Part shown: positions 21,769 through 64,000 of the stretch, piece after piece
Layout of the letters: each line of letters opens with the position of its first letter
Position numbering within the stretch: the first letter of the stretch is position 1
Source of the DNA: Candidatus Latescibacterota bacterium
GTDB lineage: Bacteria; Latescibacterota; UBA2968; GCA-2709665
Assembly (NCBI GenBank): GCA_965198095.1
Contig: OZ240239.1
Span: 118,641 to 182,640, forward strand
Reading direction: 5' to 3'
Length of the DNA stretch: 64,000 nt
The notes under the pieces: generated by a model
The model's input: only the letters and a program-made list of their open reading frames with translations
What the model was told of the DNA's origin: nothing
Databases searched by the model: none
Position numbers and translations under genes: made by a program

Positions 21769-24243
21769 TCACGATGCCACCCTGAACGCGTATAGCCTCG
21801 CCCCTTCCAGCACCACCTTCAGCCGGACCACCCGCCGGTATACTTCCTCCAGCCGCACCCGCTTCCATCGCACCTCGTGGGCCACGCGGTCTCCCGAGAA
21901 TGGAATACAGTCATCCAGACCCAGCTCCGGAAACAGATTGCCCTCCGCATCCTGCACCTCCACGCGGATGCTGCCGCCCGGGTCGGTCTGTCCGTTCAGG
22001 AGCAGGCGACTCCCTTCCACGACGAGGGGCAGCGTCGTGAACGTTCCTTTGGATCGGATCGGTTCCACGTGCGCGAGCCTGCCCGCCTTGCACTTCGCCA
22101 GGCCGGGCACGACACGGTGCCGCTTCGTCTCCTCGAAAAAGTCCTCCCAGCTCGTGAAAAAGGGCGCGAGCTCGAAGTAGGGGAGCTTGGCCTTGAACGC
22201 TTCCAGCGTGTCGGCAGTGAGATACCCGCCCAGCATATAACGCGTATTTGTCCCCCCGAAGGGGAACCACCACTCCTCTTCCCCGTCGGCGTTCGTGATC
22301 GGCGTGTATTCATTCAGACCGCTGGAGCTGGTATTCCAGCTCCCTATGGGTCCGTTTTCCAGAAGGGGCTTTCGATTCGCCCCGAACTTGCTCCAGTGGA
22401 TCAGGTCCCGGCTCCACAGCAGGTGCTGCCGGTTCTGCTGTGTCGAAAAGTCCCAGTTCAGCAGCGCACCCAGATAGAGCTGGCCGTCCGTGTCGCTCAG
22501 TTCCTTCCCCTCCGGCCTCAGAAACCCGAACCCGTAGAGGGTCGTACCGGGTGGATCGTGTTCGTCCGGTACCGTCTGGTGACGCCGTTCCCAGTTGAAC
22601 CCGTCCCGCGTCCACATCACGGCGCGCGTGCGGATGGCCGCCACGCTGTGCCAGAGGTAAAAGGGCAGCCCCGTGGGCGGATAGGCCGGCGCGTCCGGCC
22701 GGTAGTAATAGAAGAAGGTCTTGCTCTTCCGATCGTAAAACGTGGCCGTGGACCGGCCGCCGGCCTGGAAGAGCGCAAACGGTTCTCCCTCGAACGGATA
22801 GGTGGACGCTCGCTCGTTCGTAGACGTGAGCCTCATGCCGCGCGCGCCGGTCAGGACGGGCCGTCTCGTCAGGGCAAGGAAGGTGTCTCCCCGCCGCTCG
22901 AAGCCCCAGAACTCCCGGTGCTTCGGTTTGAATCCACCCAGGAACTGCTTCGCCGCCTCCATGTTGGCCTTCAGGAAGACCCGGAACACGAAGTTGTCCA
23001 TATCTATCGGTCCGTCCTTCTTGGGATCGTAGAACCGGTAGCGGTACTTCCTCGGAAACGGACGCTCCTTCACGAACGCCGGAAAGCTGTCGAACTCTCC
23101 CGACAACAGGAAATCTTCACCAGACTTGTCCCTCAGAATATTGTTGTTCTTGGATCCCTTGTAGTCCACGATGCCCAGGTCCGGCTTCTCCCACGTCACC
23201 CCATCGTTCGAAACCGTGAGACACAGATACCGGATCGAATACGCCGTGATCGTCGATCGCACACCCATCTTCCACAGCCGTTCGTCCTCGGTAAGCGGAC
23301 CGGCGTAATAGGTGGCGCGAAATTGTCTCGCTTCTTTGTCATACGAGAAAGAGTTGATCTGCAGCTGATCAGGCCCCTCCTCCCAGGGGCGGTCGAGCAC
23401 CGCGATCGGCCCGTCCGACAGGACCTCCAGCTGGTCGGGCGCGTGCTGGAGCCCGGAGGAGGATCCGCAGATCCAGCCGTCCACCATGTACTGGGGCATC
23501 TGCCCGACTCTCAGCGGATTCAACGGGCGCTTCGGCTTGTTGGGCGTCTCCAGGTTGATCTGGCGCACCATGTAGGGCCCCACCGCCTTGCCGCCCTGCT
23601 GGGCCCTCACGCGAAGCCAGAACTCCCCGCGTCCCCATCCCGCCCCGTCGAACGTACACCGCCGTACCTGGCCGTTCAGTTTCAAATCCAGAGGGCCCGC
23701 GAGGCGCTTGTGTCCCTTCGGGTCCACCACATCCACCTTCACCGAGCAGGTCTCTACGCGATCGGGCAGCGTCCGGATCGTGAAGGCCACCTCGGTCTTG
23801 TCGATAAACGCGGCCCGCTCCGGACAACACTCGATGAACTGCCGGAGCGAGTCCACCTGCCCCAGCTTCATCCCGCCGATATCCCCGAAGAAATCGTTCG
23901 CGTCCAGCCTCAGGACGCCCGATCCCACCCGCCTCCCGCCCGCCCTCAGCGTGAGGTCGAACCTGTAGCCACCCAGCGCCCACATCGCTCTCCCCTCGGA
24001 ATCGGTGGCCAGGCTCGGACCATACCGCCCTTCGTCCACGAGCGGATACGTGATCACGACCTCACCGCGGTCGCCCACCCGTTCGGCGTTACCGGTCAGC
24101 TCCTGTTCGAACCCATAGGGCTGCGTCACCTGGACGGTGGCTCGAACAGCCCCCGATTTGAGCCCTGAAGGCCAGCGAAACGTCAGCGCCTGCCTGAAGT
24201 AGCCCCTGTGCTCGAGCTTCAGCCTCAATCTTGACCCATTCAT
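21769..24243 (-). CDS. beta-propeller glycoside-hydrolase-like protein with ~300-aa N-terminal extension and C-terminal beta-sandwich (LYAFRV family)
   Basis: 824 aa. Middle region has repeated S-x-DG-x-x-W/F blade-like motifs (VSNDGVTWEKPDLG). C-terminus ..PFSGDRVAHEVRWKR..ARLYAFRVAS is homologous to the C-termini of the 51668, 61192 and 62794 proteins. Confidence 0.55.
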   Translation of the reverse strand: MNGSRLRLKLEHRGYFRQALTFRWPSGLKSGAVRATVQVTQPYGFEQELTGNAERVGDRGEVVITYPLVDEGRYGPSLATDSEGRAMWALGGYRFDLTLRAGGRRVGSGVLRLDANDFFGDIGGMKLGQVDSLRQFIECCPERAAFIDKTEVAFTIRTLPDRVETCSVKVDVVDPKGHKRLAGPLDLKLNGQVRRCTFDGAGWGRGEFWLRVRAQQGGKAVGPYMVRQINLETPNKPKRPLNPLRVGQMPQYMVDGWICGSSSGLQHAPDQLEVLSDGPIAVLDRPWEEGPDQLQINSFSYDKEARQFRATYYAGPLTEDERLWKMGVRSTITAYSIRYLCLTVSNDGVTWEKPDLGIVDYKGSKNNNILRDKSGEDFLLSGEFDSFPAFVKERPFPRKYRYRFYDPKKDGPIDMDNFVFRVFLKANMEAAKQFLGGFKPKHREFWGFERRGDTFLALTRRPVLTGARGMRLTSTNERASTYPFEGEPFALFQAGGRSTATFYDRKSKTFFYYYRPDAPAYPPTGLPFYLWHSVAAIRTRAVMWTRDGFNWERRHQTVPDEHDPPGTTLYGFGFLRPEGKELSDTDGQLYLGALLNWDFSTQQNRQHLLWSRDLIHWSKFGANRKPLLENGPIGSWNTSSSGLNEYTPITNADGEEEWWFPFGGTNTRYMLGGYLTADTLEAFKAKLPYFELAPFFTSWEDFFEETKRHRVVPGLAKCKAGRLAHVEPIRSKGTFTTLPLVVEGSRLLLNGQTDPGGSIRVEVQDAEGNLFPELGLDDCIPFSGDRVAHEVRWKRVRLEEVYRRVVRLKVVLEGARLYAFRVAS

Positions 24244-24754
24244 GACGCTTTCTTCCTCCTCCTTGCGCCGTCGCGATGACGCCGTGGGCGTACAAACAGG
24301 TGATGAGATTCGGTCCTTACGATCCGAGATTCACCGGGGTGAACGACGCCCGCCGTGACTCCTGCAGGAGTTTCAGGACTTGCCTCTCCCTCCACAGCAC
24401 CTGTACATATTGAGAGCCGCGCTGCTTATGCAGGCGGCTCGCCATAGACCGCTCCTCCGCCGTTGGATCGCGCCGTTTGCGGCTGCCGGCGAGGGCCAAG
24501 ATACGGTCTGAAAATCAGGCCGTCAACCGAAAAAATTGCGCCGGATGACCCCTCCCCCGGCCACGCCCGGCCCTCAGCGCGAGAATGAAATGTCCGTGCC
24601 GAGAGAATCGGGACGTCCCGCTCTGTCGGACTCGTCTACAGACTCATCCGATGCAAGCCAACAAATCGACTCGTCTTTCGGGTGCCGCTGTCGTCGGCTA
24701 CGCTTTCCTAAAGTCACGTTACGGGACTTCGCGCAGTTTCGTAATATAAGACAA

Positions 24755-24782
24755 GCCGCCCGGAGCAATTGCTCCGGGCGGC
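24755..24782 (-). terminator. intrinsic-terminator-like hairpin after the FadL-like outer-membrane protein gene
   Basis: Perfect stem GCCGCCCGGAGC aatt GCTCCGGGCGGC. On the minus strand it is followed by UUGUCUUAUAUU. Confidence 0.55.
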
Positions 24783-24841
24783 CGCCTTATCCTTCGACTT
24801 CGACGCACCCGATCTCTCACCGGGTGCCTGCTCTGTCCGCT

Positions 24842-25888
24842 TTAGAAGGACCCGCTCACCGTAAACCGGATCGGCTTGTGGTCGAGCAGTTCATCCAGCT
24901 CAGAATACGACACGTCGGCCATGATGCTCCGACTACCGCCGAACGTGCCCTTGACACCCGCGCCCACGCTCCAGCTCTGAGCATCATACTTGAACCGGTT
25001 CCCGGCGCGCAGGGCGAGCATGTTGTTGAACCACAGCTCCGCGCCCACGTGATACCGCTGCCAGGAGTCTGTGTGATAGGCGCCCTCGAAGGCCACCGTC
25101 ACATACGTCGGGTCGCCTATGTTGCCCATCACCTCCCCGGCCAGGCCGAGGTTGAAGATCACGGGCTGAGACGACTCGAAGATGTCGATCGCGCTGACGT
25201 CGTTCCCCAGGTTCTTGATGCCCATGCCGATCCTCAGACTCTCGAACCCCGTGTGCATCAGCGTGCCCGCGCTCAGCAGCACCGCGGTGACCTCTTCGTC
25301 CAGACCCAGCTCGGACTTCACGTAACGCAGCTGGACGCCCGCCCCCAACTTGTCGGTCATCTGATAGGCATAGTGAAAACCGATGCCCGTGTCGCCCAGA
25401 TCCAGCATCTGACCCGTGCCTTCCGGGGCCAGGGACGTGGTCTGCTCGACGTCCGGAAAGCTCAGCGTGATCACCGAAAGCCCGACCACGCCGATCGGGG
25501 TGTTGACCGCAACGGCGCCCGTGCGGTAATCCATCTCGCCGAACCACCGCATCCCGCCGAACGACCACCCGAAGTTCTCGATGCCGGCGATCCCGGCCGG
25601 GTTGTAGTAGATCGCGTCCATCCCGTCCGCCACCGCCGTGAAGGCCTCACCCATCGACTCCAGTCGGGCCGTGGGCGCGATCTTCAGGAAGTGGAACGTG
25701 GACGGATTCTGCTTCGTAAAGCGATCGAAGTCCGACAACGTCTCGTCCGAGAGCGACGCCTTCGGATCGAAGGGGATGTCCTGGAAGTCTGTCGTTACGA
25801 TTTCGGCCTGGGCCCATGCCGGGGCAGATGCAAACGGGAGAGCCGCAGCCAGCGCCAGGACGGTTAGCGTGCATACAATCCATTTCAT
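24842..25888 (-). CDS. outer-membrane beta-barrel protein, FadL/PorV-like
   Basis: 348 aa. N-terminal signal peptide (MKWIVCTLTVLALAAALPFASAPAWAQA). YYNPAGIA (NPA-type hatch motif). Alternating amphipathic strands. C-terminal Phe (..FTVSGSF). Confidence 0.5.
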   Translation of the reverse strand: MKWIVCTLTVLALAAALPFASAPAWAQAEIVTTDFQDIPFDPKASLSDETLSDFDRFTKQNPSTFHFLKIAPTARLESMGEAFTAVADGMDAIYYNPAGIAGIENFGWSFGGMRWFGEMDYRTGAVAVNTPIGVVGLSVITLSFPDVEQTTSLAPEGTGQMLDLGDTGIGFHYAYQMTDKLGAGVQLRYVKSELGLDEEVTAVLLSAGTLMHTGFESLRIGMGIKNLGNDVSAIDIFESSQPVIFNLGLAGEVMGNIGDPTYVTVAFEGAYHTDSWQRYHVGAELWFNNMLALRAGNRFKYDAQSWSVGAGVKGTFGGSRSIMADVSYSELDELLDHKPIRFTVSGSF

Positions 25889-25928
25889 AGCGTGTTTCCC
25901 TTTATGAATGAGGTTGTTCTCGTCCGTC

Positions 25929-28280
25929 CTACCTGTGGATGACCAGGTAACCGCTCTGCGTCTTCCCGCGGTTTGAGGGAAGCAGGCTCTCCACCACCCA
26001 GTAGTAGACCCCCGTCATCAGCTCGCTGGTGAGTGTAGCGTTCTTCAGCGTGAATTTGGCCTCGCCGGAGGTGCTATTTCTGTGGTAGAGCGTCGAGACC
26101 AGGTCGCCGCCCACGCTGAAGATCGAGATCTTGGCCTGGGTGGGAACGCCCACGAACCGCATCTTGAGCGCCCCGGCGTAGCTCTGGTCGTCCGCCCGGA
26201 TGTTCAGCGGGTTGGGGACCACGCGGATCTGAGTCTCCAGCGCGTCGGCGGCCGCCGTCGGAGGCTGGCTCGGCACAAAATCTTTCAGCGTCCTCTGCTC
26301 GGGTGCCGAATAGCCGCCCTCCATCCCGCCGGTCACGTGAGACGACATCTGCGCGGGCAGATCCGCAAGGGTCTTTGACCCCTCGCTCCAGTCCGACTTC
26401 GCAGAGGCCACGGCCCGCACGTTGTAGAAGTTGGCGAACCCGGCCAGGGACTCCGAATCCGTCCAGGCGTAGGAGGTGCCCGCCCCGGTGGCCGCGACCT
26501 CCTCCTTCAGGATCCAGGGTCCATATTCCGCATAGACCGACTGGTAGACCCGGTAGGCCGTCACGTCGGTCGTCCCGTAGTCAGGATTGATCGCGCTTTC
26601 AGGCGCGCCGGTCCATTCGACCAGGTTTTGAGCCGAATCGCTGTTCTTCACCGTGAAATCGACATCGGGCGGTGTGTTGGGGATCTGCCACTCGTTCGAG
26701 TAGGCGAACAGCGCGTGGCTGATGTTCGTCCACAGCCCTTCGTGGCCCTTGGCCAGCTCGGCATTGCGGAACGCGTCGTCCGTCCCCTTCGACCCGACCG
26801 TGTTCATCGCCCAGCCTGTCGGGTCTATAGGATATCCCGTCTGGGAGTTGATCGTGACGTGGGAGCCGGTGCCCACCACATTCGCCATCACCAGCTTCAC
26901 CTGGTCCCCCGGGTCCATCGTGTAGGGCCCATACAGCAGGTCGACGAAGCCCAGCTCCACTTGCGAAGGCGGCGCGTGGGAAGCCGCCGTCCAGGCGTCG
27001 TAGCGGTCGGCGTTTGAGACCGGGCCTAATCCATCCGCCGGGTCCACGACATCGTTCCCGGACTCTTGCTTCCAGAAGTGCCAGAGCGGCTCTCCCGCGG
27101 GCTCCACATACCCCGCGGCCGCGTCCGCCGCGTTCCAGGCCCCGGTGCCGCTGCTCCTCCAGGCCAGGGCGCCGTACCCGACGTAGTCCGGAGAAAGCGG
27201 CATGCCGTTCGGCCGTAGGCTCGCGTTCAGCCAGCTCGGGTCGACGCAGGCAGCAAGGATGCAGACCTCCGCAATGAACGGGTCGCCCGTGTCGTCGTCA
27301 GGCGTCAACGGGAGGTCCCCGTCCCACTGCACGTGCCAGTTCCGCCCGACAAGATTGGCGTTGCCTTTGAACCCGGCGGCCTCGGAGTAGTCGATCCACT
27401 CGTCCGAATCATCGTCTCTGAAATAGTGCCGGCCGCCGTGGTAGCCGAAGCGGGAGGTGTTGCCGGTCTGGTTGATGTTGAAGCCGTTGATTCCCCCGAA
27501 GTAGGCCCCCGTGATCTGCGAGTCGGAGGTGTTCGTCCAGACCAGCTCGTGGACGAGCATGTCGTCCAGGTCCTGGTTGCTCCAGGCCAGCACTCTCCGC
27601 TTGGCCGTGAGCACGTTGGACCCGCCGTGCTCGTTCGACTCCCACTCCGAGATCATGATCGTCTCGGCCGTATTCTGCAAAGGCGAGTAGATCCCGTAGT
27701 CGTAGTTGTGGATCTCATACGGGTGCTGGGTCGTCGGATCGCCGGATAGCGGCACCGCCCCCGGCCACCAGTTGGACGTGCTCTCTCCGGGTTTCTTAGC
27801 ATCGGATTTACTCGACTTCGTGTTGATGCCCCAGGTCGCCTCGGGGCTGTTCTCGATATCGTAGGTGTGGGGGAGGACCTCCGGGGTGGTCTGCCGCGGC
27901 CCCGTAAAGGAGGCATACTTTTCGCCCCCCACCTGTGTCAGCGAGATCAGGCCCTCGCTCACAGAAAACATCGTGCCCTCGTAGGCCCCGCAGTGCCCCG
28001 TTGGCTTGACACTCCAGTACCAGTCCACCTGAGGGGCCGCGCACGAGCTCGCCGGGGTGCCCGGGAAGCTCAGCATCCACATCCCCCGGTTGCCCTTCCC
28101 TGGGAAGGCCGAGCTGGTGACGCCGTTGTTCGCGAACCCGTTCCAGACGTTTGCCCGGTCCAGGTTGCGCCTCGAGGTCATCATGTTGATCTGGGCGGAG
28201 GCGCTGAACGTGTCTGCGGCAAGCAACGCAGCCGCAGCCAAGCCGAGCACCGCCCATCTCTTCAACTGATTACCGAACAT
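25929..28280 (-). CDS. secreted protein with probable C-terminal T9SS sorting domain (function unknown)
   Basis: Start refined to MFGNQLKRWAVLGLAAAALLAADTFSASAQ (signal peptide; AAGGAG Shine-Dalgarno). The last ~70 aa (AKISIFSVGGDLVSTLYHRN...TGVYYWVVESL..GYLVIHR) fit the T9SS C-terminal domain pattern. ORF track 25929..28334. Confidence 0.5.
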   Translation of the reverse strand: MFGNQLKRWAVLGLAAAALLAADTFSASAQINMMTSRRNLDRANVWNGFANNGVTSSAFPGKGNRGMWMLSFPGTPASSCAAPQVDWYWSVKPTGHCGAYEGTMFSVSEGLISLTQVGGEKYASFTGPRQTTPEVLPHTYDIENSPEATWGINTKSSKSDAKKPGESTSNWWPGAVPLSGDPTTQHPYEIHNYDYGIYSPLQNTAETIMISEWESNEHGGSNVLTAKRRVLAWSNQDLDDMLVHELVWTNTSDSQITGAYFGGINGFNINQTGNTSRFGYHGGRHYFRDDDSDEWIDYSEAAGFKGNANLVGRNWHVQWDGDLPLTPDDDTGDPFIAEVCILAACVDPSWLNASLRPNGMPLSPDYVGYGALAWRSSGTGAWNAADAAAGYVEPAGEPLWHFWKQESGNDVVDPADGLGPVSNADRYDAWTAASHAPPSQVELGFVDLLYGPYTMDPGDQVKLVMANVVGTGSHVTINSQTGYPIDPTGWAMNTVGSKGTDDAFRNAELAKGHEGLWTNISHALFAYSNEWQIPNTPPDVDFTVKNSDSAQNLVEWTGAPESAINPDYGTTDVTAYRVYQSVYAEYGPWILKEEVAATGAGTSYAWTDSESLAGFANFYNVRAVASAKSDWSEGSKTLADLPAQMSSHVTGGMEGGYSAPEQRTLKDFVPSQPPTAAADALETQIRVVPNPLNIRADDQSYAGALKMRFVGVPTQAKISIFSVGGDLVSTLYHRNSTSGEAKFTLKNATLTSELMTGVYYWVVESLLPSNRGKTQSGYLVIHR

Positions 28281-28314
28281 GGGTAAGACTCCTTCTGTGT
28301 GAATGCGCTGCCAT

Positions 28315-31300
28315 TTAGAACGACAGGCGTGCACCGAGGACGAACAGGCGCGGCTGTTCCCCTACGCCACCGCCGGTAGGCGCGCCGTAGGACTCTGCCT
28401 GCCCGAGTGAATACCGGGTCATGTCGCGGTAGTCCCCGTACTTCAGGAAGTTCGCGTCGTCGGGCTCAAACGCCGACAGCCCGTAGAGGACGTAGTTGGA
28501 CGTCGTCGGCAGCTCGTCCTTCTGGTTGAACAGGTTCCGGATCTCGACGAAGGCCGTGGCCGTCCCGGACTGGCCGAAGCTGAAGTCCTTCTCCACGTTC
28601 AGGTCGGTCACCGTGTTGATCGGCGAGTTGCGAAGCTGCGTCGGTGCGTCAGGCGGCGTGTAATTATAGGGCGTGCCGCCCTGGACCCGGTAGAGCATCG
28701 TCACACGGCTCCCGGCCAGGGCCTTCATTTTGTAATCGGCCGGGGCCGAGAACAGGAACTGAAGCGCCGCGTAGTTGCGCCGGTCGATCCCGTTCGTCGG
28801 CTTCGGGAGCCGGTAGACATTCCGGTGGCTCGCAAACGTCTGGTCATACCCCTCGACCCGCAACGGCTGCAGCACGTAGCCCTGGGGCCCGTTGTCCGCG
28901 CCCACACCGGCGAGGTGTGCGTCGTAATTCGCCTGTGCGCGAGCCTTGTAGTCGGCCCGTTCCGCGGCCGTCGGGACCCTGGGCGTCTCCGTTCCGTCGG
29001 AATTCGAGTCTACGCCCAGGAAAAAGTCCGGGCCATCCACGAAGGACGGGTCGTGGAAGAAGACCACCGTCCACGTCCCCTGACCCGCCTTCAGCCACTG
29101 CGTGTTCCAGGACAGGTTGAACGAGGTCATCTGGCTGAACATCTTCTTGAATGAGAGCTCGAACCCGCGGGAGGTCTTCACCGTCGAGATGTTGCCCGAC
29201 CGGAAGGAGTTGTCCTTCGTCACGCCGTCCGGCCACAAGTCGGTGTTGGCCACCCAGTAATACCGCCGCTGCATGATCTGCCCCTCCAGGTCCTTGAAGT
29301 AGGCCGTGGAGCTGAGCACGTAGTCGCCGGCGAAGTTCCAGTCTATCCCGGCTTCGAACGTGACCGTGCGCTGGGGGTCGAGGTCCGTCGTGGCATACCG
29401 CTGGTTGTGCGGCTGCTCGAGCGAGTTGCCGAGTTCCGTCTGGTCGATCTGCCCGTTGTCGTTCACATCGGTGTCCACGGTGCGCGACCTGAACCCGCGG
29501 TCGTAGAGGAACTGCTTGGAGGGCATCTCGTGAAGCACGCCGCTGTAGAACCGGATCGTGGAGCGCTCCGTAATCGGGTGCGAGATGCCGAGCCGCGGGC
29601 TCACGTTCGTGATCCAGTCGGTCGACCGGAACGGCACGTTCTCGAAGCGCCGCATCCGCCACCAGTGCCACCACTGCTGGCCGTCCTGCACCCAGATGTC
29701 GCCCGCGTGCAGGGCGTCCGCCCGGAGGCCCGCGTTGATCACCAGGCCCTCGAACTCCATCTTGGTCTGGACGTAGCCCCCGACCTGCTTCGGGTTGAAG
29801 GACTCCCAGCCATCGTATATGTTGCCCTTGCCGGCCATGCGGATCCGCCGCTCATTCCCACCCGGCCTCAGGTCGTGATATTCAAACGCCAGCAGGTCAT
29901 AACGGTAGGCCTCCAGCCCGGCCTTAGCCAGGATCTGCTTGGCCACCTGGCTCGTCACGTCCGCCTTTAACGAGATGCGTTTGCGATCGTGATCCATAAG
30001 CGCATAGACACTGTATTGCTGGGTAAACCCGTAGTCATCCCTCGATTTGGACTCCGACGAGCCCTCCGCAGCGGCAACGTCGGTAGTGGTCCTCGAATTC
30101 TGCCAGGAGACCCGGATGTCGTAGAAGGTCGTCGGCGAGATCGTATGCGTGGCGGTCAAATAGGCGGCACTCTCCTTGAAGGTATGCACGCCGTGGGAAG
30201 CAAACCCCTCCGGCAGGAACATGGCGGAGGCATCCGTGGCGTTTGTCCCCCCCCCAAAATAAAAACGTTTACCAATGAAGGGACCCCGACGGAAATAGCC
30301 CAACTGGTCCCCATCATACTGGTCGCGGGTGGAATGAATACCGCCCACCTTGAACTTCATTGTGCCGCCCGAGCGGAAGGTGAAGCTCCCCATCCCCGAG
30401 AAGTTGCCCGGCGGACCCATGTTGGCGTTGGGGGTGACGGGCGCCGTCCGGTCGGTCTTGGCATTCACGAAGAACCCGGCGTTGTCAGACAGCGGGCCGT
30501 GAACCGAACCTTCGATCCAGTGACCTGTCTTTTCGTCGTAGTCGGTCCGGCTGTGGGACGATGTAAAGTCCGAATCGGACCAGGGGTTGGCCAGCCCGAT
30601 GTAACGCTTGAGCCAGCCGCTGTCGTAGATGTTGGGCCCGAAGTGCTTCACCCCCGGCGGCTCAAACCGGTACTCCAGCTGGCCACCGAATCGGGATCCG
30701 GACTCCCTGGTGACCATGCTGATCACGCCGCCAGAGGCGCCGCCATACTCGGCGTCCATCCCGCCTACGGTCACCACCACCTCCTGCAGTGCGCCCTTGT
30801 TCAGCGGGATCCACTGCTCGTAGTCGAGGTAGGTGTCGTCGTTGAGCATCTTGACGCCGTCCACCTCGTAATACTGCTGAGGCGCGGAGTTGGTCTCTGC
30901 GGTGTCGCTGCCCCGGAGGCGCACGTTGCCGTCCACCGACACCCCGGGCTGCAGCTCGAGCAGGTCATCGGTGTCCCGCGCCAGCGGCACGCTCTGAATG
31001 TCGAAGATGTCGACGACGTAACGGCTCGTCGTCTTGTCGGGTTCCACCGGAGGACGCCGTGCCGTCACCACCATCTCGGCGGCCTCCAGCGTAGCTTCCG
31101 TCATCGTGAAATTCAGTCTGGTCGTGAAGTCCGACTGCACCGACACTTCCTCCTGAGTCGAGGTGACATACCCCACCATCGACGCCGTTACCCGAACGAG
31201 GCCGGGGTCTACCGCAAGGATCAGGTAGTAACCCTCGGCATCGGTCGTGGCGCCGCGCCGGGTGCCCTCGATCACGACGTTGGCCCCCGGAAGCGGATTG

Positions 31301-36296: not shown

Positions 36297-36516
36297 GAGC
36301 CTTCCCTCCTTTTGCAGCGTCCCCCGTCCCCGCAAAAGACATGCCGTGTGGCACCGGCAGCAAGCTGCCGGTGGATCATGATGAGCCTGTTGTGTTTCTT
36401 AGCGTGAGGAATCTTGCACGGGCAGACAAGCTGCCCGTGGCACACGTGACTGGATTCGCGATCTCACGCGCAGAACCACCGGCGATCCGATTCAGTCTTT
36501 CGAACGACGGTTTTTT

Positions 36517-41805: not shown

Positions 41806-41815
41806 TTGCTTGATC

Positions 41816-51553: not shown

Positions 51554-51667
51554 TTTCACTCCTTGTATATCGCCAGTCAGAATCCACCGGCAGCAAGCTG
51601 CCGGTGCCACACCACACAACATCGATTACGAGACTATATCACCCGCGCCACGGGCACGCTCGAGGCT

Positions 51668-53275: not shown

Positions 53276-54773
53276 CGGGCACGACGGAGAGCCAGCGTGC
53301 ATCGTAAAGGGCGCCCTCGGCATCGAAGACCCGTCCGTCGGGAAGCATGTACTGGTTCGGCGTCGTCGGCTTCTGTCCGGATTGGAATTCCGACGACCGG
53401 GCCCTGTCCGCGGCCATCTGCTGGTGGACCCGCTCCCAGCTGAATCCCTCGAAAAGGGCCTCGCGCATCTTCCGACATCGGGTGGCTTGATGGGGGCTTT
53501 CGGCCAGGTTCGTCTCCTCGTCCGGGTCGTTCACCATATCGAACAGCAGCCGGTCTCCCTTCTCGATATCCACGTACTTCCAGTCCCGGCTCCTCACGAC
53601 ACGCATGGCAGCCGCCGCTTCCTGCTTCGCCGTCTGTTTGTAGTTGATCCTCACGCCATAGTGACAATAGCCCGCGGTCACGTACTCCCGGGGCGCTTCC
53701 GCATCCTCAGGGTCCGCCAGCAGGCCGCTGAAGTCCTTTCCGTCCAGCCCTTCCGGAATCGGAAGACCGGCCAGACCGCAGGTCGTCGGATACAGGTCGA
53801 TGAGCGAAATCGGGTGCGGAACCGGGTGATGTCCTTCCCGTATTCCGGGGCCGCGGATCAGAAGCGGGACCCCGATCGAAGGATCGTAGTAGTTGCCCTT
53901 ACCCCAGAGACCGTGCAGGCCGGCCATCTCTCCGTGATCACTCGTGTAGATGACGACCGTATTCTCCAGCAGGCCGGCATCGCCCACACCCTTCAGGAGT
54001 TCGCCGATGCAGTCATCCGCGAAATCCACGCAGGCGTAGTAGCCTTCCCGTCCGCGCCGGGTTTCCTCAGGCGTAAACTCACGCCAGAGACGTCGCGCGA
54101 AAGGCTCCAGCTTCTCCGCAAAGCCGGAGGGCGGATCGATCGGCGGCAGTCGGTCTCGGTAATACCGGATGTAGCGACCCGGGGCCGTAAAGGGACTGTG
54201 AGGCCGGGAATAGGAGGCACACACGAACCAGGGCGTCTCCGGCTCGCGGCTCTGGTGCTCGAGCAAGAGGGCGATTGTCTCCCTCGTGACGACCACGTCC
54301 TGCAGAAGACTCTCGGGGATCTCGGTGATCCCCCCGCTTGTGGCCGAATGATACGAGGGAAACAGGTCGATCGGCTCGGGCTGATGGCTCAAGCCGTGCC
54401 GAAGATCGCCGTAGGGCCGGACCTGGAATCCCTGCATCTGGTCTCGACCGCCGAAGTGCATCTTGCCGACCAGGCCGGTGCGATACCCGTGCGCCGCGAA
54501 GTGGGCCGGCCAGGTTACGTGCTCGGGAAAAATGATCCAATGGTTGCTCCACGCCGCGCATCGGAAATCATCTTTGCCCGTGAGCAGGCACATCCTCGAG
54601 GGGGTGCAGACCGGCGACGCGCAGAAGGCGTTGTCGAACTGGACCGACCGGCCGGCCAGGTCGTCCAGATGCTGCGTGCGGACGTGCTCATCTCCCGAAA
54701 ACCCGGCTACCTTGGGCGCGTGTTCGTCGGTGAGGATAAGGAGAATGTTCGGTTTGTTTGAGTTTCCGCTCAT
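53238..54773 (-). CDS. sulfatase (S1 formylglycine-dependent family), no signal peptide
   Basis: 511 aa. ILLILTDEH and the C-x-P-x-R formylglycine motif in CASPVCTPSRMCLLTG. GKMHFGG. Confidence 0.85.
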   Translation of the reverse strand: MSGNSNKPNILLILTDEHAPKVAGFSGDEHVRTQHLDDLAGRSVQFDNAFCASPVCTPSRMCLLTGKDDFRCAAWSNHWIIFPEHVTWPAHFAAHGYRTGLVGKMHFGGRDQMQGFQVRPYGDLRHGLSHQPEPIDLFPSYHSATSGGITEIPESLLQDVVVTRETIALLLEHQSREPETPWFVCASYSRPHSPFTAPGRYIRYYRDRLPPIDPPSGFAEKLEPFARRLWREFTPEETRRGREGYYACVDFADDCIGELLKGVGDAGLLENTVVIYTSDHGEMAGLHGLWGKGNYYDPSIGVPLLIRGPGIREGHHPVPHPISLIDLYPTTCGLAGLPIPEGLDGKDFSGLLADPEDAEAPREYVTAGYCHYGVRINYKQTAKQEAAAAMRVVRSRDWKYVDIEKGDRLLFDMVNDPDEETNLAESPHQATRCRKMREALFEGFSWERVHQQMAADRARSSEFQSGQKPTTPNQYMLPDGRVFDAEGALYDARWLSVVPDATGGIIPQQFG

Positions 54774-57764: not shown

Positions 57765-59270
57765 CTAGCTTTCTTTCGTCTCTCGCCTTTTAACGATCTC
57801 CGACCACGGAACGCCCTTTTCGATGTCCCTGATTTCCCGGGAGAAGGCCTCGTGGTGATAACCCGGCACGGAGGCGAACCTCACCCCTTCGGGCAGCGCT
57901 CCGTGCAGCAGCGGCGGACAAGACCGGTAGCGCAAGAGGTCCATCAGCAGGGCCTCCCGAATCTCCCGGTAGTCGGGGTCGTGCCACCTGTTGTAAATCT
58001 CTCCCGGATCCGTCCGGTGGTCGTAGATCTCGCTCTCGTCCCCTGTCAAATCGAAGGTGATGCGGAAGTCTTCTGTCCGCATCGACATGTGGTGATAGTC
58101 CTTCACGTGTTCGCATAGGACCGCCCGTTTGTTCCACTCCTCCTTGCCCAGAATCGCTGGGACGAGGCTCCGTCCCTGAACCGTGTTCGGCGTCTCAAGG
58201 CCGAGCAGTTCAGTTAGCGTCGGATAGAGATCCACAGACTCCACGAACTTGCCGAACTCCTCTCCCGAAGGCAGCCCACTCGGGTAGCGAATAATCAGGG
58301 GAACCTTGTGAACGCATTCGTAAAACCCGAGGTTCTTCCAGATCAGTCCGTGCTCACCCGCGAAGTCTCCGTGGTCGGAGGCGTAGATGACGATCGTATC
58401 TTCCAGGATGCCCTGGGCCTCCAGCTCCGCAAGCATCCTTCCGATCTGCTCATCGATCAGGGTGACGAGCGCGTAGTAGTAAGCGATACACTGTCTCAGG
58501 TGCGCGTCGTCCCTCGGCCGGTAGGGGTACCAGAGTTCGCCACGCATCGACTGCTGTTGCCGCTCTGACTTGCCCTCAAACGGGTCTTCGGCATTCGCAG
58601 GGACCGTTACCTCATCCGGATCGTAGAGGCGGTCATACGGCTCGGGCACGGTGAGCGGATCGTGAGGCCGTTCGAAACAGACGTAGGCGAAGAACGGCTT
58701 GCCTTTGTCTCGCTCGCGGAGGTATTTCACTGCCTCGTCTCCGCACCAGACCTCCATCGAGTGTTCCAGTGGCAAGGGCGACGTGACCGCGCAGTCGGGG
58801 TGCTGCTTCCATTTGCTCGTATTGTCGTAATCGTCCGCCACCCCTGCGTCAACCAGGCTTCGGAAGTAGTCGCACGTGAGCGGGTCGTCCGGCAGCGCAT
58901 CGGTGTTCGTGCTGAAACAGGTAGTGTCGAACTCTCGTCGGGGCCAGTGCACCCCGATATGTCCCTTTCCGATGAGCGCCGTCTCGTATCCGGCCTGCCT
59001 CAGGGTCGCCGTGATCGGATTCAGGTGGTCTGGCGGCTCATCGATGTTGCCGTGACGCCGATGCCAGTGTTCGTAGATCCCGGTCAGGTAAGAGATGCGC
59101 GATGGGCCGCAGTGCGCGCTGTTGGCGTAGGCCCTGGCGAATCGAATGCCCTCCCGCGCGAGCCGGTCCATGTGGGGCGTCTGGAGCAGAGGCTCGCCCG
59201 CGCAGGACATACAGCGCGCATTATGCTGGTCGCTCAGTACAAAGAGGATGTTGGGCTGTCCGGAAGCCAT
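57765..59270 (-). CDS. sulfatase (S1 formylglycine-dependent family), no signal peptide
   Basis: 501 aa. ILFVLSDQH and C-x-P-x-R in SAHCGPSRISYLTG. ..IVIYASDHGD.. Confidence 0.85.
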   Translation of the reverse strand: MASGQPNILFVLSDQHNARCMSCAGEPLLQTPHMDRLAREGIRFARAYANSAHCGPSRISYLTGIYEHWHRRHGNIDEPPDHLNPITATLRQAGYETALIGKGHIGVHWPRREFDTTCFSTNTDALPDDPLTCDYFRSLVDAGVADDYDNTSKWKQHPDCAVTSPLPLEHSMEVWCGDEAVKYLRERDKGKPFFAYVCFERPHDPLTVPEPYDRLYDPDEVTVPANAEDPFEGKSERQQQSMRGELWYPYRPRDDAHLRQCIAYYYALVTLIDEQIGRMLAELEAQGILEDTIVIYASDHGDFAGEHGLIWKNLGFYECVHKVPLIIRYPSGLPSGEEFGKFVESVDLYPTLTELLGLETPNTVQGRSLVPAILGKEEWNKRAVLCEHVKDYHHMSMRTEDFRITFDLTGDESEIYDHRTDPGEIYNRWHDPDYREIREALLMDLLRYRSCPPLLHGALPEGVRFASVPGYHHEAFSREIRDIEKGVPWSEIVKRRETKES

Positions 59271-59355: not shown

Positions 59356-59805
59356 TCATCGCTCGACTTGGACCCTCCTTGACGTGCCTTTTCTCGGAGT
59401 GACACGGACGACGCCCCGGTCCGCATCCACCACCACCCGATCCCCCGTCGCGATGGTCGAAAACGGGTCACGCTCCAGGTCCGTCATCATCGGGATGCCG
59501 TTCACGATGCACCCGAGGGCGGCCAGGCTGTCGACCTCCACGTTCACGAACGCCACCGGGGCATTTCCTTCCAGCCGGGCCAGGTTCAGCGTCATCGGCG
59601 TCCCGGAAGATCCCTTGGTCGAGCGGATCACGAGCACCCGATCCCTCAGTGATTCACCCTCCAGCGGATGTCCGGAGCCGATCACTTTCCCGGTAATCGC
59701 ATCCACCTCGCCCCAGAAAGAGAGCGTGGCGTCCGCCACCAGCGCCGTCCCCTCGGCCCTTCCCATCACCACCCCTCTGCCCTTGATTTCGATCGTCTCA
59801 GCCAT
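59356..59805 (-). CDS. aconitase X swivel-domain small subunit (DUF126 / AcnX type IIa small subunit)
   Basis: Start MAETIEIKGRGVV.. Typical DUF126 length and Gly-rich pattern. 8-bp overlap with the upstream AcnX large-subunit gene. ORF track 59356..59826. Confidence 0.6.
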   Translation of the reverse strand: MAETIEIKGRGVVMGRAEGTALVADATLSFWGEVDAITGKVIGSGHPLEGESLRDRVLVIRSTKGSSGTPMTLNLARLEGNAPVAFVNVEVDSLAALGCIVNGIPMMTDLERDPFSTIATGDRVVVDADRGVVRVTPRKGTSRRVQVER

Positions 59806-61051
59806 CTCCCATCCACTTCCCGGCAACGGCCGCCCGAATGCACGGTTCGGTCTCCGCGATAATCATTTCTGCCCCCAGCATCCCCCGGGCATAATGCGCC
59901 TGTTTGAACCCGTGGGTTACGATGCGCTTGGCCGGGATCCGCATGTTCGTTGGGCAAGTGTCGCACAGGATCCGGCCGCCCGCAGCCTCGATCGCCTCCG
60001 TGTATCCCATCGCGTCCGCGTTCCCCTTGGTTCCCCGGGCCGTATCCACCCAGAGCCTCACCCCCTGGGCGATCTTTTTCCCCCTCAGTAGGCCAGCAAT
60101 CTCAGAAATTTCCTGGATAGACGCGTGAGGACAGCCAAGGATCACGGCGTCGATTTCGTCTCCGGTGTGGGTCCGAAGCGATTCATAGGTCTCCCTCAAG
60201 GCGGCATCGTCAAACACCGTCTCGGGCTCGGGCACATCGCCCTGAAACGCGGCCTCCAGTGTGGGAGCCTCGGGCGTCACGCCCGCGATGTGACACATCG
60301 TCACGCCCCCTGACGTCGCGAGCGCGGCGCACAGCTGCTTCGCCTCATCCTGTGACGGGCGTTCCACGCCGTTGAACACCGGAATACCCAAACCAGCCAA
60401 CTTTCCCGAATAGTAACCGAGCGCCCCCCAGTCCGTCGGGCTGTCCAGGTCTGCGGTCACGTCGATCCGCAGCGTCCCCTTCCGGTTCTCGTCCAGTAGG
60501 ACACCGAACTCGGGTACCAGTCCTAGAAGCGACGCCGCGATCGCGCTCTCCGTCCCGTGCCGCACGGTTCTCGCCCCCAGGATCGAGTTGGCGTAGACCA
60601 CCGCTGAAGACTCGGTCCAGGCGCAGACCTCCCCCTTCAGCGGAACGTTTCCGACGAGATACGGCGCGCACGTGAACGTCGGGATGAATCCGGCCTCAGC
60701 CGCCATGTCTGCCAGTTCCTTCTGCATCCGCACCTGCTCCGGATCGTTTTCAGGCACATCCTGATGGCCCTCCAGTGTGACGAAAGCGGCGTGGACTGTG
60801 CAGGTGCATCCCGGGTGCGTCTGGTGCGCGCAGGCCTCCTTCAGATCTTCCATATACCGGTCGAGTGTTTCCCGGGAAGCCCCTCTGGCCATCAGGTTGG
60901 GAACCGGCAGCAGCGCGTGCGTGTTCTCCACGCGCACCAGCCGCTGCGCACCCATCGCCTCGCCCCACGCGACCAGCCAGCGCATGCACTTGGCCAGGTA
61001 GTCGCCCTTGGCGCCGTCCAGAATGGCCTGCTGTTCTTCAGTAAGATCCAT
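59798..61051 (-). CDS. aconitase X catalytic large subunit (DUF521 / AcnX type IIa large subunit; hydroxyproline- or mevalonate-phosphate-dehydratase-like)
   Basis: 417 aa. The N-terminal MDLTEEQQAILDGAKG.. and Cys-rich regions are typical of DUF521. Paired with a DUF126 gene. Confidence 0.6.
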   Translation of the reverse strand: MDLTEEQQAILDGAKGDYLAKCMRWLVAWGEAMGAQRLVRVENTHALLPVPNLMARGASRETLDRYMEDLKEACAHQTHPGCTCTVHAAFVTLEGHQDVPENDPEQVRMQKELADMAAEAGFIPTFTCAPYLVGNVPLKGEVCAWTESSAVVYANSILGARTVRHGTESAIAASLLGLVPEFGVLLDENRKGTLRIDVTADLDSPTDWGALGYYSGKLAGLGIPVFNGVERPSQDEAKQLCAALATSGGVTMCHIAGVTPEAPTLEAAFQGDVPEPETVFDDAALRETYESLRTHTGDEIDAVILGCPHASIQEISEIAGLLRGKKIAQGVRLWVDTARGTKGNADAMGYTEAIEAAGGRILCDTCPTNMRIPAKRIVTHGFKQAHYARGMLGAEMIIAETEPCIRAAVAGKWMGDG

Positions 61052-61191: not shown

Positions 61192-62712
61192 TTACTGTTT
61201 AGGAATCTGCAACGCATAAAGCTTCGCGTTGTCCATGGTAAAACGAACTCTGACCGGGAGATGCGCTCCGATATCCGAGTTTCCCCTCCACGTGAACGTA
61301 TGCGCCAGGCTGTCCCCCTTGAAGGTATCACAGTCCTCTCTGGAAAAGCCATCAACAACGTATCCATCCGAGGTTAGAAGTTCGGCGTCAATATAACCTC
61401 CGGACGCAACGGCGTTGACGACAAGTCGATTGCCCGGCGATTGAAGCGGTTTCGTCAACAGTGTAGGCGGGTAATTATTCTTGGTGCTTCTGTGCGAATT
61501 GTCGATCGCGTCGATGGAGACGAATCCGTCCAGCCGCAGCTTGGCCAGCCCGAGCTTTGTGTTACCACCCGCGTCGTGGCGGTTGTCCGTCCCGGTATAG
61601 TAAACCCAGTGCTCATCCCCGACCCGCATCGGGGCCTGTAACATTGCGCACATGCCCCACTCCCAGCTTCCATCCGGACCGAGGGGCAGAAAAGGCCCGG
61701 TTCTCAGCCGTTCCCAGTGGAAACTGTCCCTGCTGTGCGAAAGGTACATATCCATCGTGTCGTGCGCCGTGTGATGTGTCCTCACGAAGCCGAGGTAGAT
61801 GCTCTCGTAGTAGAACGCCTCCATGCCGTAGAAGTCCGTATCGAACGGATCCAGCGCGTCCTTGTCGATCACGGGCGCAGACATCGACCAGTGGATCAGG
61901 TCGTTGCTCTGCATCCTCTGGATCGATCGCTCCGTCCTGTGCACCAGCATCGGACTTGGATAGGGATTTCGACAAAATCCAAGGTACTTCTTGCTCACGG
62001 GATCATACATGATACTAAGCGTCTCGTCTCCTCGCCCGGCACTGATCGGCCCCGGGTCCGGCGTCCAGTGGATCCCGTCGGGGGAATGGAAGACCGCCGG
62101 CTGTCCTCCTCCGTGACCCATCTTGTAGCGTCTGGACGGATCGGCCTCAGGATCCTTCACGACGTATTGACACTTGGTCTCGTAAACGATGTTCGTGTCG
62201 CTGCCATCGGTGTGTTTCACCACGCCCAGCGGCGGCGTTTCCCACTTGATGCCGTCCTCCGAGGTGGCATACAGGATCCTATAGTTATAGCTTCGCACGG
62301 GCACACCTTCTACCGTCAGGCCGTTGTACCACATCTTCCAGATCCCGTCTTCTTCGTCGTAGAGGATCCTTGCCGGCCACGGCGCAGACCTGCCCTCCCA
62401 GTCGTGCGACCGCTGCATGATCGGATTGCCTTCGTACCGCACGGGCTGATTCACCGTCCGCGTCACGAAGGCGGTCGCCCTGAGCAGATGCCCTGGTACG
62501 TCCGCTTCGATCTTGTCGGTTGCCTCGCTCCATCCGTCCAGGTTCGTTCGCTCCTCGGCTGACGCCGGTATCCGCGGCTGTACCCATCGGGCCGTCTCCG
62601 CGAGACGAGGAGAAATCCAGCGCGTCGTCTCGATAATGTGGTCGTCCACAAAAAGCTGCTTGCGTGTACCGACATCAACGATCAGTTCTGATCCTGGAAC
62701 CTGTAACCTCAT
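61192..62712 (-). CDS. beta-propeller glycoside-hydrolase-like protein (LF[VL]DD / LY[AS]FRV family)
   Basis: 506 aa. MRLQVPGSELIVDVGTRKQLFVDDHIIE.., SEDGIKWETPPLG, SPDGIHWTPDPGP, SRDSFHWERLRTGP, C-terminal ..AKLYALQIPKQ. No signal peptide. Confidence 0.6.
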   Translation of the reverse strand: MRLQVPGSELIVDVGTRKQLFVDDHIIETTRWISPRLAETARWVQPRIPASAEERTNLDGWSEATDKIEADVPGHLLRATAFVTRTVNQPVRYEGNPIMQRSHDWEGRSAPWPARILYDEEDGIWKMWYNGLTVEGVPVRSYNYRILYATSEDGIKWETPPLGVVKHTDGSDTNIVYETKCQYVVKDPEADPSRRYKMGHGGGQPAVFHSPDGIHWTPDPGPISAGRGDETLSIMYDPVSKKYLGFCRNPYPSPMLVHRTERSIQRMQSNDLIHWSMSAPVIDKDALDPFDTDFYGMEAFYYESIYLGFVRTHHTAHDTMDMYLSHSRDSFHWERLRTGPFLPLGPDGSWEWGMCAMLQAPMRVGDEHWVYYTGTDNRHDAGGNTKLGLAKLRLDGFVSIDAIDNSHRSTKNNYPPTLLTKPLQSPGNRLVVNAVASGGYIDAELLTSDGYVVDGFSREDCDTFKGDSLAHTFTWRGNSDIGAHLPVRVRFTMDNAKLYALQIPKQ

Positions 62713-62752: not shown

Positions 62753-62790
62753 CGGTACCCGGTACCCGTATTTGACTTCCCAGTACCCGG
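62753..62790 (-). promoter_or_regulatory. GGTACC-box variant (CGGTACCCGGTACCCGTATTTGACTTCCCAGTACCCGG)
   Basis: ~40 bp upstream of the 62712 start. Preceded by CGATCCACGATTAGCGGGTTT. Confidence 0.45.
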
Positions 62791-62793
62791 TCT

Positions 62794-64000
62794 CTACTCT
62801 TGCGGAATTTGCAGGGCGAAGAGTCTCGCGTTATCCATGTAAAACCGAACTCTGATGGGAATGCAGCCACCTATATCCGCGTTTCCTTTCCAGGTGAACG
62901 TATGCGCCAGACTGTCCCCGTTGAACGTATCGCAGTCTTCCCTGGAATGCCCGTCGATCACGTTTCCATCTGTTGTCAACAACTCGGCGTCGAGATATCC
63001 CCCGGAAGCGACCGCGTTCACGACGAGCCGGTTTCCCGGCGATTGTAGCGGTTTGGTCAACAGCGTCGGCGGGTAGTTCCTTCCCGCGCGTCGGTGCGCG
63101 TTGTCGATCGCGTCGATCGACACGAACCCGTCCAGGCGAAGCTTCGCCAGCCCCAGACCCGCAGCATCACCATCCCCACCATCGTGCAGTCCCGCTACGC
63201 CCGTATAGTAGAACCAGAGCTCATCACCGACCCTCATCGGGGCCTGAAACATCTGGGCCATGCCCCATTCCCAACTCCCGTCTGATCCTCGAGGCAGAAA
63301 AGGTCCGGTCCGTATCCGCTCCCAGTGGAAACTGTCTCTGCTGTGGGACAGCCACACCTCCATGTGATCAGGGCCCGTTCGGTGAATGTTCACAAATCCC
63401 AGATACATACTCTCATAGTACATCCCCTGCAAACCGTAAAAGTCGGTGTCGAAAGGATCCAGCGGGTCCTTGTCGATGATGGGGGCCGATATCGACCAGT
63501 GGATCAGATCATTGCTCTGCAGCCTCTGGGTCGATCGCTCCGTCCGGTGGGTCAGCCACGGTTCAGGATAGACGTTTCGGCAGAACCCGAGATATTTCTT
63601 GCTCACGGGGTCATACATGATGGACAGGGTCTCGTCCCCTCGGTCGCTCTGGGTCGGACCCGGGTCGGGCGTCCAGTGGATTCCGTCGGGGGAATGGTAG
63701 ACCGAGGCATCGATCGGGGGGTCCCAGTGGAGCAACGGACCGTGACCCATCTTGTAACGCCTGGAAGGGTCTGCGTCTTTGTCCTTCACAACGTACTGAC
63801 TCTTGCATTCGTTCACGATATTCGTGTCGTTCCCATCTCTGTCTTTCGCGACCCCCAGCGTCGGTCTTTCCCACGTGATGCCGTCTTCAGACGTGGCATA
63901 CATCGTGTTGTACACGATCTTCCGTTCAGGGAACTCGTCGACGGTCACGCCGAGGTACCACATCTTCCAGATCCCGTCTTCCTCATCGTACATAATGTCC
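62794..64000 (-). CDS. beta-propeller glycoside-hydrolase-like protein, tandem paralog (5' end outside window)
   Basis: Collinear with 61192-62712 at ~75% identity (..YDEEDGIWKMWY.., C-terminal ..ARLFALQIPQE). Confidence 0.6.
   Translation of the reverse strand, partial: DIMYDEEDGIWKMWYLGVTVDEFPERKIVYNTMYATSEDGITWERPTLGVAKDRDGNDTNIVNECKSQYVVKDKDADPSRRYKMGHGPLLHWDPPIDASVYHSPDGIHWTPDPGPTQSDRGDETLSIMYDPVSKKYLGFCRNVYPEPWLTHRTERSTQRLQSNDLIHWSISAPIIDKDPLDPFDTDFYGLQGMYYESMYLGFVNIHRTGPDHMEVWLSHSRDSFHWERIRTGPFLPRGSDGSWEWGMAQMFQAPMRVGDELWFYYTGVAGLHDGGDGDAAGLGLAKLRLDGFVSIDAIDNAHRRAGRNYPPTLLTKPLQSPGNRLVVNAVASGGYLDAELLTTDGNVIDGHSREDCDTFNGDSLAHTFTWKGNADIGGCIPIRVRFYMDNARLFALQIPQE

Follow-up and report, generated by a model that had tools for sequence, protein, structure and literature searches.

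A 64-kb stretch of DNA from a Candidatus Latescibacterota bacterium (contig OZ240239.1, positions 118,641 to 182,640; hereafter the window) contains four related genes, here called A, B, C and D, which raise the question of which enzyme family their products belong to and what reaction they might catalyse. An earlier note on this DNA had described the products as propeller proteins that could not be placed in glycoside hydrolase (GH) families GH43, GH32 or GH130 or among the sialidases, and indeed no Pfam or NCBIfam model matched any of the four. We found that the family is real, large and uncharacterised; it adds a new branch to an enzyme fold already well known and is not a new kind of system. 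Profile comparison places it as a distant sister of GH130 in the five-bladed furanosidase/phosphorylase superfamily, outside all named families. As to function, we favour, with a probability of about 45%, the reading that all four proteins are two-domain enzymes of the cytoplasm which would act by inverting hydrolysis, with D187 as the predicted proton donor and a putative basic pocket for an anionic glycoside (residue numbers are those of protein C unless another protein is named).

Four paralogous genes in the window

All four open reading frames (ORFs) were present on the minus strand at the places reported earlier (Table 1), and BLASTP comparisons showed that they are real paralogues, with homology far beyond chance. 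Identity was 73% between C and D (400 aa), 31% between B and C (510 aa, E = 3e-53) and 23% between A and C (338 aa, E = 1e-13); this last pair also matched in another segment, located in blade I. A and B matched best in their C-terminal 113 aa (32% identity, E = 2e-11). A tblastn search with the four proteins as queries revealed no fifth copy in the whole window. The last two copies form a tandem, as had been noticed before, with D lying upstream of C and 81 nt between them.

Gene C, the reference member, is preceded by the ribosome-binding site (RBS) AAGGAGG 7 nt before its ATG. Gene B had been given as 51668-53275, and while the gene itself is real, its longest ORF extends to 53323 and its true start is most likely the GTG at 53194 and not 53275. 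This choice was made because the sequence AAGGAG lies 6 nt before this GTG, because the GTG follows the stop codon of the neighbouring sulfatase gene (53238-53240) by 44 nt, and because the protein read from it has the usual N-terminus of the family.

The repeated blade motifs and homologous C-termini that had been described were both recovered. In C, the blade motif S-x-D-G/x-x-x-W occurs four times (S151, S210, S269 and S327) with a spacing of ~59 aa, and the C-terminal motifs GD..H..W ... LYAFRV / LYSFRV / LYALQI / LFALQI align column for column. The N-terminal motif LF[VL]DD, previously said to be shared by the copies, reads LFLDD in B and LFVDD in C but is degenerate in A (QYMVDG, residues 251-256 of A); across 70 members, D23 is present in 69 and F21 in 64. 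Inspection of the N-termini of A, B and C found no signal peptide, which agrees with the earlier note for these three proteins, whereas for D both the motif and the N-terminus fall outside the window.

Fold of the proteins

An AlphaFold2 model of C, built with a 70-sequence alignment, had a pLDDT of 87.5 and a pTM of 0.87 and consisted of a five-bladed propeller and a beta-sandwich. According to this model, the propeller would be the catalytic part, with the N-terminal LFVDD strand segment (pLDDT 92-97) and the C-terminal sandwich packing onto it. Residues 34-76 form a disordered insert that is restricted to the C/D subgroup. The sandwich is entered through GLAKLRLDGFVS, the most conserved linker of the family, which also served as the pattern for a genome scan (see below).

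A is the divergent member. In its model (pLDDT 84.1), two N-terminal Ig/FN3-like sandwiches precede a propeller at about residues 279-710, which carries helical inserts, and a sandwich at residues 711-824. The extra N-terminal region of A, put at ~300 aa in the earlier note, instead measures about 250 aa and comprises the two sandwiches plus a linker; for residues 1-231, Foldseek returned only generic FN3 and macroglobulin domains. The subfamily of A is small, with 28 full-length homologues at >=51% identity, all of them unnamed.

When the model of C was compared with the PDB by Foldseek, it matched members of GH130, GH32, GH43, GH137 and GH159 as well as the F. plautii GalNAc deacetylase, with 10-17% identity throughout. 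The best TM-scores on the target were those of the GH130 beta-1,2-mannoside phosphorylases (0.65-0.69; 7fip and 9gph). The model and these matches to propeller enzymes thus bear out the propeller plus C-terminal sandwich build that had been proposed from the motifs.

Relation to known families

A search of PDB sequences with the family profile ranked GH130 first (9fj8, 2.5e-11; 7fip, 7e-11), followed by GH32 (2.5e-9), 6n1a and GH117-like proteins. Further comparison by hhalign with a GH130 alignment of 36 sequences, built from relatives of 7FIP, gave a probability of 98.9% and E = 2.1e-17 over 278 columns, and it is because this profile-profile match spans the whole propeller that we place the family next to GH130.

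None of the four window proteins matched the GH130 model PF04041, and only two of the 70 relatives reached E < 0.1, whereas true GH130 proteins in the same database all carry PF04041. The GH43 model PF04616 and the BNR models likewise had no match in the four proteins, with one of the 70 relatives reaching E = 0.016 for BNR. The matches of the relatives to GH32N (discussed below) and GH130 were weak, so that no profile match of the kind that would make the family unremarkable emerged. Literature searches on the deacetylase 6N1A, PF22847, new five-bladed GH families and the founding members of GH130, GH117 and GH32 retrieved no characterised member, and a paper on diatom sulfated mannan mentions none of these families. 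A candidate tag, PF22847 'Glyco_hydro_43_rel', was set aside after it appeared as faint matches in some relatives only and was not recovered in the local copy of Pfam.

With the named members of GH130, namely Teth514_1789 (PDB 7FIP), Teth514_1788 (9FJ8/9GPH), UhgbMP and BT3780, the family shares a homologous five-bladed propeller, an N-P...W-E entry motif, S-x-D-G-x-x-W blade motifs and a blade-II Asp aligned with the proton donor. Of the two columns for phosphate binding, one is basic in nearly all family members and the other is His in about half of them. Identity is nevertheless only 15-21%, and the family differs from GH130 in having an LFVDD strand added at the N-terminus and, at the C-terminus, a beta-sandwich of ~110 aa, which is placed as in GH32 and some GH43 enzymes. 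Conservation in the family does not extend to the GH130 residues R59, R150/K, D304 and the N of F-N, whereas R262, D288 and Y295 are conserved in the family and have no counterpart in GH130.

The families GH43, GH117, GH137 and GH159 share the superfamily fold (Foldseek E 1e-7 to 1e-9; 8hcj, 5mui, 7zei), and matches of the family profile to GH117 reach E ~7e-4. These enzymes differ in that our family has no blade-I catalytic base and is <15% identical to them, and the domain-swapped N-terminal helix of GH117 was not seen. GH33-type sialidases and BNR proteins have six blades, Asp-boxes of the form S-x-D-x-G-x-T-W and an Arg triad, while the family model is five-bladed and its blade motif S-x-D-G-x-x-W is one residue shorter than the sialidase Asp-box.

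Candidate active-site residues

In GH130, the proton donor is an Asp (D104 of UhgbMP, in a Y/E-D motif) and phosphate is bound by the pair R168/H231 (PMC7660257). This Arg/His pair is present in the cytoplasmic phosphorylases, which have no signal peptides (PMC4599007), and is lost in the secreted hydrolases (PMC4599007, PMC7660257). In the hhalign alignment, D187 of the family fell on the invariant GH130 Asp of E-D-P-R, the proton donor; R/K248 fell on the invariant H-R-R, which holds the phosphate-binding Arg; H314 fell on the invariant Y-H-G, which holds the phosphate-binding His; and W350-D/E351 fell on the invariant W-E. The GH130 columns R59, R150/K, D304 and the Asn of F-N are occupied in the family by N/x130, G228, a variable position 376 and P/Y113, respectively.

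The candidate active-site residues of the propeller in C are E106, D187, D229, R248, R262, D288, Y295, H314, E351 and H379. When column conservation was counted over 381 family sequences, R262 was the most constant (97%), followed by R/K at position 248 (95%), D/E at position 351 (92%), D288 and Y295 (91% each) and H379 (77%). Position 187 is D in 73% and E in a further 5%, and the Asp is present in B, C and D. Position 314 is less uniform (51% H, 19% R/K, the rest D, Y or S), where C has His, D has Arg, B has Tyr and A has Asp. At position 229, an Asp is found in both C and D, a Leu in B and a Gly in A. No conserved carboxylate was found in blade I between E106 and D119, the site of the nucleophile or base in GH32 and GH43, residues 107-115 being G or hydrophobic, which excludes GH32/GH43-type chemistry. 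By hairpin register, Tyr295 stands at the place of the EC glutamate of GH32, and the blade-IV position where GH43 has its Glu general acid is a Tyr in the family; D237 (or D229, if strand register is followed) is a possible counterpart of the Asp in the GH32 RDP motif.

Sorting of 255 gene-called members by our own hydropathy heuristic (not SignalP) yielded 84 with clear signal peptides, which lead directly into the usual mature N-terminus (e.g. ...ALSPLVAARPAVVEIGSRKQLFLDD), and 82 that are clearly cytoplasmic. The basic residues are kept in the signal-peptide group (R/K248 in 80 of 84, R262 in 83 and H/R/K314 in 72), and likewise in the 82 cytoplasmic proteins; in this the secreted members are unlike the hydrolases of GH130. 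At position 248, Lys prevails in members with signal peptides (58 K, 22 R) and Arg in the cytoplasmic ones (56 R, 21 K).

Proposed mechanism and its alternatives

Under the hydrolytic reading that we favour, the enzymes would be exo-acting and would cleave a glycosidic bond by inverting single displacement, on oligosaccharides or glycopeptides already imported into the cytoplasm. Asp187, at the top of blade II, would donate the proton as in GH130, and a water molecule activated by D288, D/E351 or E106 would serve as the nucleophile. The basic cluster of R/K248, the nearly invariant R262, H/R314 and H379 could hold the anion of the substrate, be it a sulfate ester or a carboxylate. Hydrolysis with an anion-recognising cluster is preferred because secreted members retain these basic residues. 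Since pocket positions 314 and 229 vary, the four paralogues would probably each act on a linkage or sugar of their own within a single complex substrate, and their partners could be the neighbouring cytoplasmic sulfatases, GH127, the GH36-like enzymes and the sugar-acid enzymes. A gene for a D-lyxose/mannose isomerase adjacent to the family genes is the only hint of beta-mannosidic activity.

Several points weigh against this reading. Residues were assigned to the pocket by sequence and profile alignment and strand register, not by superposition, and the secreted and cytoplasmic groups were separated by the hydropathy heuristic. D187 is absent in about 20% of members, and three alignments disagree on its equivalent in A, which is D406 according to MAFFT while hmmalign gives no Asp, in a region of low pLDDT. 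Every member that has a name on record is a 'hypothetical protein'. Of 81 loci, only 6 have a sulfatase within 10 kb, and two of these are the same locus; a sulfated substrate therefore cannot be general to the family; the co-occurrence with sulfatases that the earlier note had suggested checking is a local feature and no family trait. No neighbour family is found in more than 14% of loci. Finally, the R/H pair in the phosphate-site columns and the cytoplasmic location of the window copies fit a phosphorylase equally well.

Such a phosphorylase would be of the GH130 type and would comprise at least C and D among the cytoplasmic copies, with Asp187 protonating and phosphate, held on R248, H/R314 and R262, attacking C1 to release a sugar 1-phosphate. 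GH130 phosphorylases are the best matches of the family in both profile and fold, the proton-donor column and both phosphate-binding columns hold D, R/K and H, and A, B and C lack signal peptides as GH130 phosphorylases do (PMC4599007). We still regard phosphorolysis as unlikely, for the basic residues are equally kept in the roughly one third of members with signal peptides, where it would be unexpected; the GH130 subsite residues R59, R150/K and D304 are replaced; no phosphomutase or sugar-phosphate gene recurs in the neighbourhood (beyond ten annotated neighbour families, each family occurs in at most 4 loci); and the adjacent D-lyxose/mannose isomerase works on free sugar. That the proteins are not glycosidases at all, being instead carbohydrate esterases or deacetylases comparable to the GalNAc deacetylase of F. 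plautii, lyases or isomerases of small sugar derivatives, or non-catalytic binders, seems distinctly unlikely to us. The deacetylase (6N1A) is also five-bladed; it ranked first by Foldseek E-value (4.3e-10) and was likewise the top PDB match of a single-sequence search. Moreover, among the neighbours at the various loci are aminotransferases, PhyH dioxygenases, Gfo/Idh/MocA oxidoreductases and TIM-barrel isomerases, which are not classic glycosidase partners. Yet its TM-score is just 0.41 (query) or 0.52 (target) at 14% identity, only the blade motifs align, and its chemistry is that of a deacetylase; the GH130 profile-profile match is much stronger and spans the catalytic columns, and with so many carboxylates and Arg, His and Tyr residues conserved close together, catalysis is more likely than binding alone.

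Divergent beta-fructofuranosidases or fructan hydrolases of the GH32 type, with a retaining mechanism, are a very improbable identity for the family. GH32 enzymes such as those of T. maritima (1UYP) and BT1760 (6R3R) have the same build of propeller and C-terminal beta-sandwich, and Foldseek aligns both domains (about 500-560 columns); 29 of the 70 relatives match GH32N at E <= 0.1 (best E = 1.4e-8; the few checked singly scored 26-28 bits against a cut-off of 22.1 bits), and HMMER puts the 'wDP' of the family on the RDP motif of the T. maritima invertase. None of the four window proteins, however, matches GH32N or GH32C, the latter being unmatched in the relatives too. There is no conserved Asp at the site of the WMNDPNG nucleophile, Tyr295 takes the place of the EC Glu, superposition is poor (TM-score 0.37-0.40, root-mean-square deviation about 17 A), and no genes of fructose metabolism lie nearby. 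The suggestion that the four proteins are linked only by a mobile, generic C-terminal carbohydrate-binding module (CBM) is scarcely tenable. A and B do resemble each other most in their final 113 residues, but the propellers are homologous as well, as seen in the BLASTP matches of B with C over 510 aa and of A with C over 338 aa plus the blade-I segment. Of the 150 best representatives, 148 gave a profile match that extended from the N-motif to the last residues and the profile end, so that the sandwich always accompanies the propeller; no CBM model of Pfam matched the four window proteins in searches that did not use the C-terminal domain alone as a query. The mobile-module reading was rejected on these grounds.

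Family size, distribution and significance

A HMMER profile scan over 1.84 billion representatives, with clusters formed at 50% identity, retrieved 5,659 family clusters at E <= 1e-30, a number that rises to 17,071 at E <= 1e-10, and the linker pattern located at least 573 loci in GTDB species genomes. The closest relative is P0001, from the Candidatus Latescibacterota metagenome-assembled genome (MAG) OZ252100.1, which is 96% identical to C; in this MAG, the orthologues of D and C are immediately preceded by two A-like genes. Other loci are mostly from Planctomycetota and Acidobacteriota, with some from Verrucomicrobiota, Chloroflexota, Poribacteria and Bacteroidota. Local multiplication is common: 25 of 75 loci have two or more copies within 10 kb, and in 11 there are directly adjacent copies on the same strand.

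The most frequent neighbour families in the 81 loci were the sialidase-like BNR_2 proteins and DUF1501 (11 each), the SSS (sodium:solute) symporter (10), FG-GAP (9), Gfo/Idh/MocA (8) and the class-III aminotransferase (7). A conserved partner gene was considered and rejected, as even the top families reach only 11 of 81 loci; the lack of such a partner is what would be expected for a family with many specificities.

Since there is no Pfam or NCBIfam model, no informative name and no structure above 17% identity, the family falls into a blind spot of carbohydrate-active enzyme (CAZyme) annotation. The gap concerns Planctomycetota, Acidobacteriota, Latescibacterota and phyla related to them, which play an important part in breaking down the glycans of algae and soil. 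A wider proposal, which we put forward tentatively and with the odds against it, is that the family is an unrecognised group of glycoside-cleaving enzymes that keeps the GH130 proton donor, has its own set of Arg262, Asp288 and Tyr295 and a basic pocket for sulfated or acidic sugars, or else consists of new glycoside phosphorylases, and that it has been expanded in cytoplasmic, sulfatase-containing islands of Latescibacterota. If so, the family, with its at least 5,659 clusters (50% identity), would equal many CAZy families in size, and sulfated oligosaccharides would be imported and dismantled in the cytoplasm. Once a single member has been characterised, thousands of 'hypothetical proteins' could be annotated, and it would be clear whether these bacteria process sulfated or acidic oligosaccharides in the cytoplasm and which route they use, hydrolysis or the energy-saving phosphorolysis. 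The residue predictions D187, R/K248, R262 and H314 make the choice between these two directly testable.

Some further features were noticed in loci outside the window. In Latescibacterota, DUF6785 (and DUF6784) proteins are encoded just upstream of close C orthologues (L001, 3766-5496; L083, 6658-9461; L084, 6231-8204); the window, whose edge cuts gene D, shows no DUF6785 gene. At the 96%-identical locus, a 125-aa '23S rRNA intervening sequence protein' is encoded between the D and C orthologues (L001, 9539-9916). A metagenomic protein of 5,844 aa, P0121, has 54 partial profile matches, the best stretch covering profile positions 43-190, which suggests a long array of blade-like repeats. A PhyH gene adjoins a family member both in the window (50783-51622, downstream of B) and in an unrelated 5-Mb genome, where two PhyH genes (L082, 8925-9701 and 15400-16245) lie near the member P0046.

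Genomic context in the window

Table 1. Coordinates of the four family genes, their domains and other features of the window
Feature	Position	Strand	Description
Gene A	21769..24243	-	824 aa; divergent member; ORF and translation
Gene A, residues 1-231	23551..24243	-	two Ig/FN3-like beta-sandwich domains (1-114 and 137-231); from DSSP strands and pLDDT
Gene A, residues 251-824	21772..23493	-	QYMVDG, propeller and C-terminal beta-sandwich; from alignments and secondary structure
Gene B	51668..53194	-	508 aa from the probable GTG start; 551 aa in the longest ORF
Gene C	61192..62712	-	506 aa; reference member and basis of numbering
Gene C, residues 11-30	62623..62682	-	N-terminal strands with K-Q-L-F-V-D-D motif; pLDDT 92-97
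Gene C, residues 84-393	61534..62463	-	five-bladed beta-propeller; from strand map, conservation and hhalign to GH130
Gene C, residues 394-506	61195..61533	-	C-terminal beta-sandwich, entered via the conserved linker
Gene D	62794..64000	-	tandem paralogue of C; 5' end beyond the window edge, 401 aa visible
Sulfatase gene	53238..54773	-	directly upstream of B; Pfam Sulfatase E = 1.5e-42
Second cytoplasmic sulfatase gene	57765..59270	-	two genes downstream of C; Pfam Sulfatase E = 8e-49, from residue 6
Three-gene set upstream of A	24842..31422	-	1035-aa outer-membrane receptor-like protein with CarboxypepD_reg, 801-aa and 348-aa proteins
GH127 gene	44409..46340		beta-L-arabinofuranosidase family
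AcnX genes	59356..61051		two-subunit AcnX
Sites listed for the PhyH, enolase-superfamily and M19 dipeptidase genes	50783..51622, 35358..36335, 15596..16783, 1955..2947		three PhyH, two enolase-superfamily and M19 dipeptidase genes
GHL10-like genes	7705..9288, 9310..10887, 17702..19255, 19949..21517		four-copy family, proteins of ~520 aa
GH36/melibiase-like genes	11039..13087, 13313..15337		tandem, 83% identical
Y1 transposase gene	41889..42323	-	144 aa, IS200-like; Pfam Y1_Tnp E = 6.6e-8
Repeat array	41615..43041		units of ~125 nt on both sides of the transposase gene

The window has a G+C content of 59-64%, and almost all of its genes lie on the minus strand. Two of the four copies had been described as adjacent to sulfatase genes; this is so for B, which abuts one, but C is separated from the other by the two AcnX genes. 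The Pfam domain of the sulfatase next to B begins at residue 8, and this enzyme is therefore taken to have no signal peptide.

Among the 42 ORFs examined in the window, the only signal-peptide-like N-termini were those of the three products encoded upstream of A. The same three-gene set precedes family members twice in the Latescibacterota locus L083 (1-6326 and 11923-18624), so that close C orthologues, too, have it as a neighbour. There the CarboxypepD_reg receptor has ~1040 aa, the ~800-aa and ~340-aa proteins had no match in Pfam, and all three products have N-termini resembling signal peptides. The set may be an uptake module like those of polysaccharide utilization loci, with two uncharacterised partners.

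The rest of the 64 kb is a one-strand cytoplasmic catabolic island. Its enzymes are two sulfatases, GH127, two GH36-like and four GHL10-like proteins, BNR_2, a D-lyxose/mannose isomerase, AcnX, two enolase-superfamily proteins, an HpcH aldolase, three PhyH proteins, an M19 dipeptidase and various dehydrogenases. Latescibacteria have been described as degraders of algal cell-wall glycans and glycoproteins (PMC4454575), and the gene content of the island fits this published lifestyle. Speculatively, the GH127, AcnX, PhyH, enolase-superfamily and M19 genes might serve the catabolism of hydroxyproline-rich glycopeptides or glycoproteins (PMC4454575).

A second four-copy family is present in the window. 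Its proteins form two pairs, 63-66% identical within a pair and 24-27% identical between pairs, and match Pfam GHL10 only marginally or below threshold; this is probably the 'first expanded family' of the earlier reader.

The Y1 transposase gene is flanked on both sides by an array of ~125-nt units, in which five copies of a 252-nt double unit were reported. The units are made of the imperfect palindromes TTCGCCAGCAGGAGCTGGCTCCTACC / GGTAGGAGCCGCCTCCCGGCGGCGAA, and the whole looks like a repetitive extragenic palindrome (REP)/REP-associated tyrosine transposase (RAYT) element amid the catabolic island.

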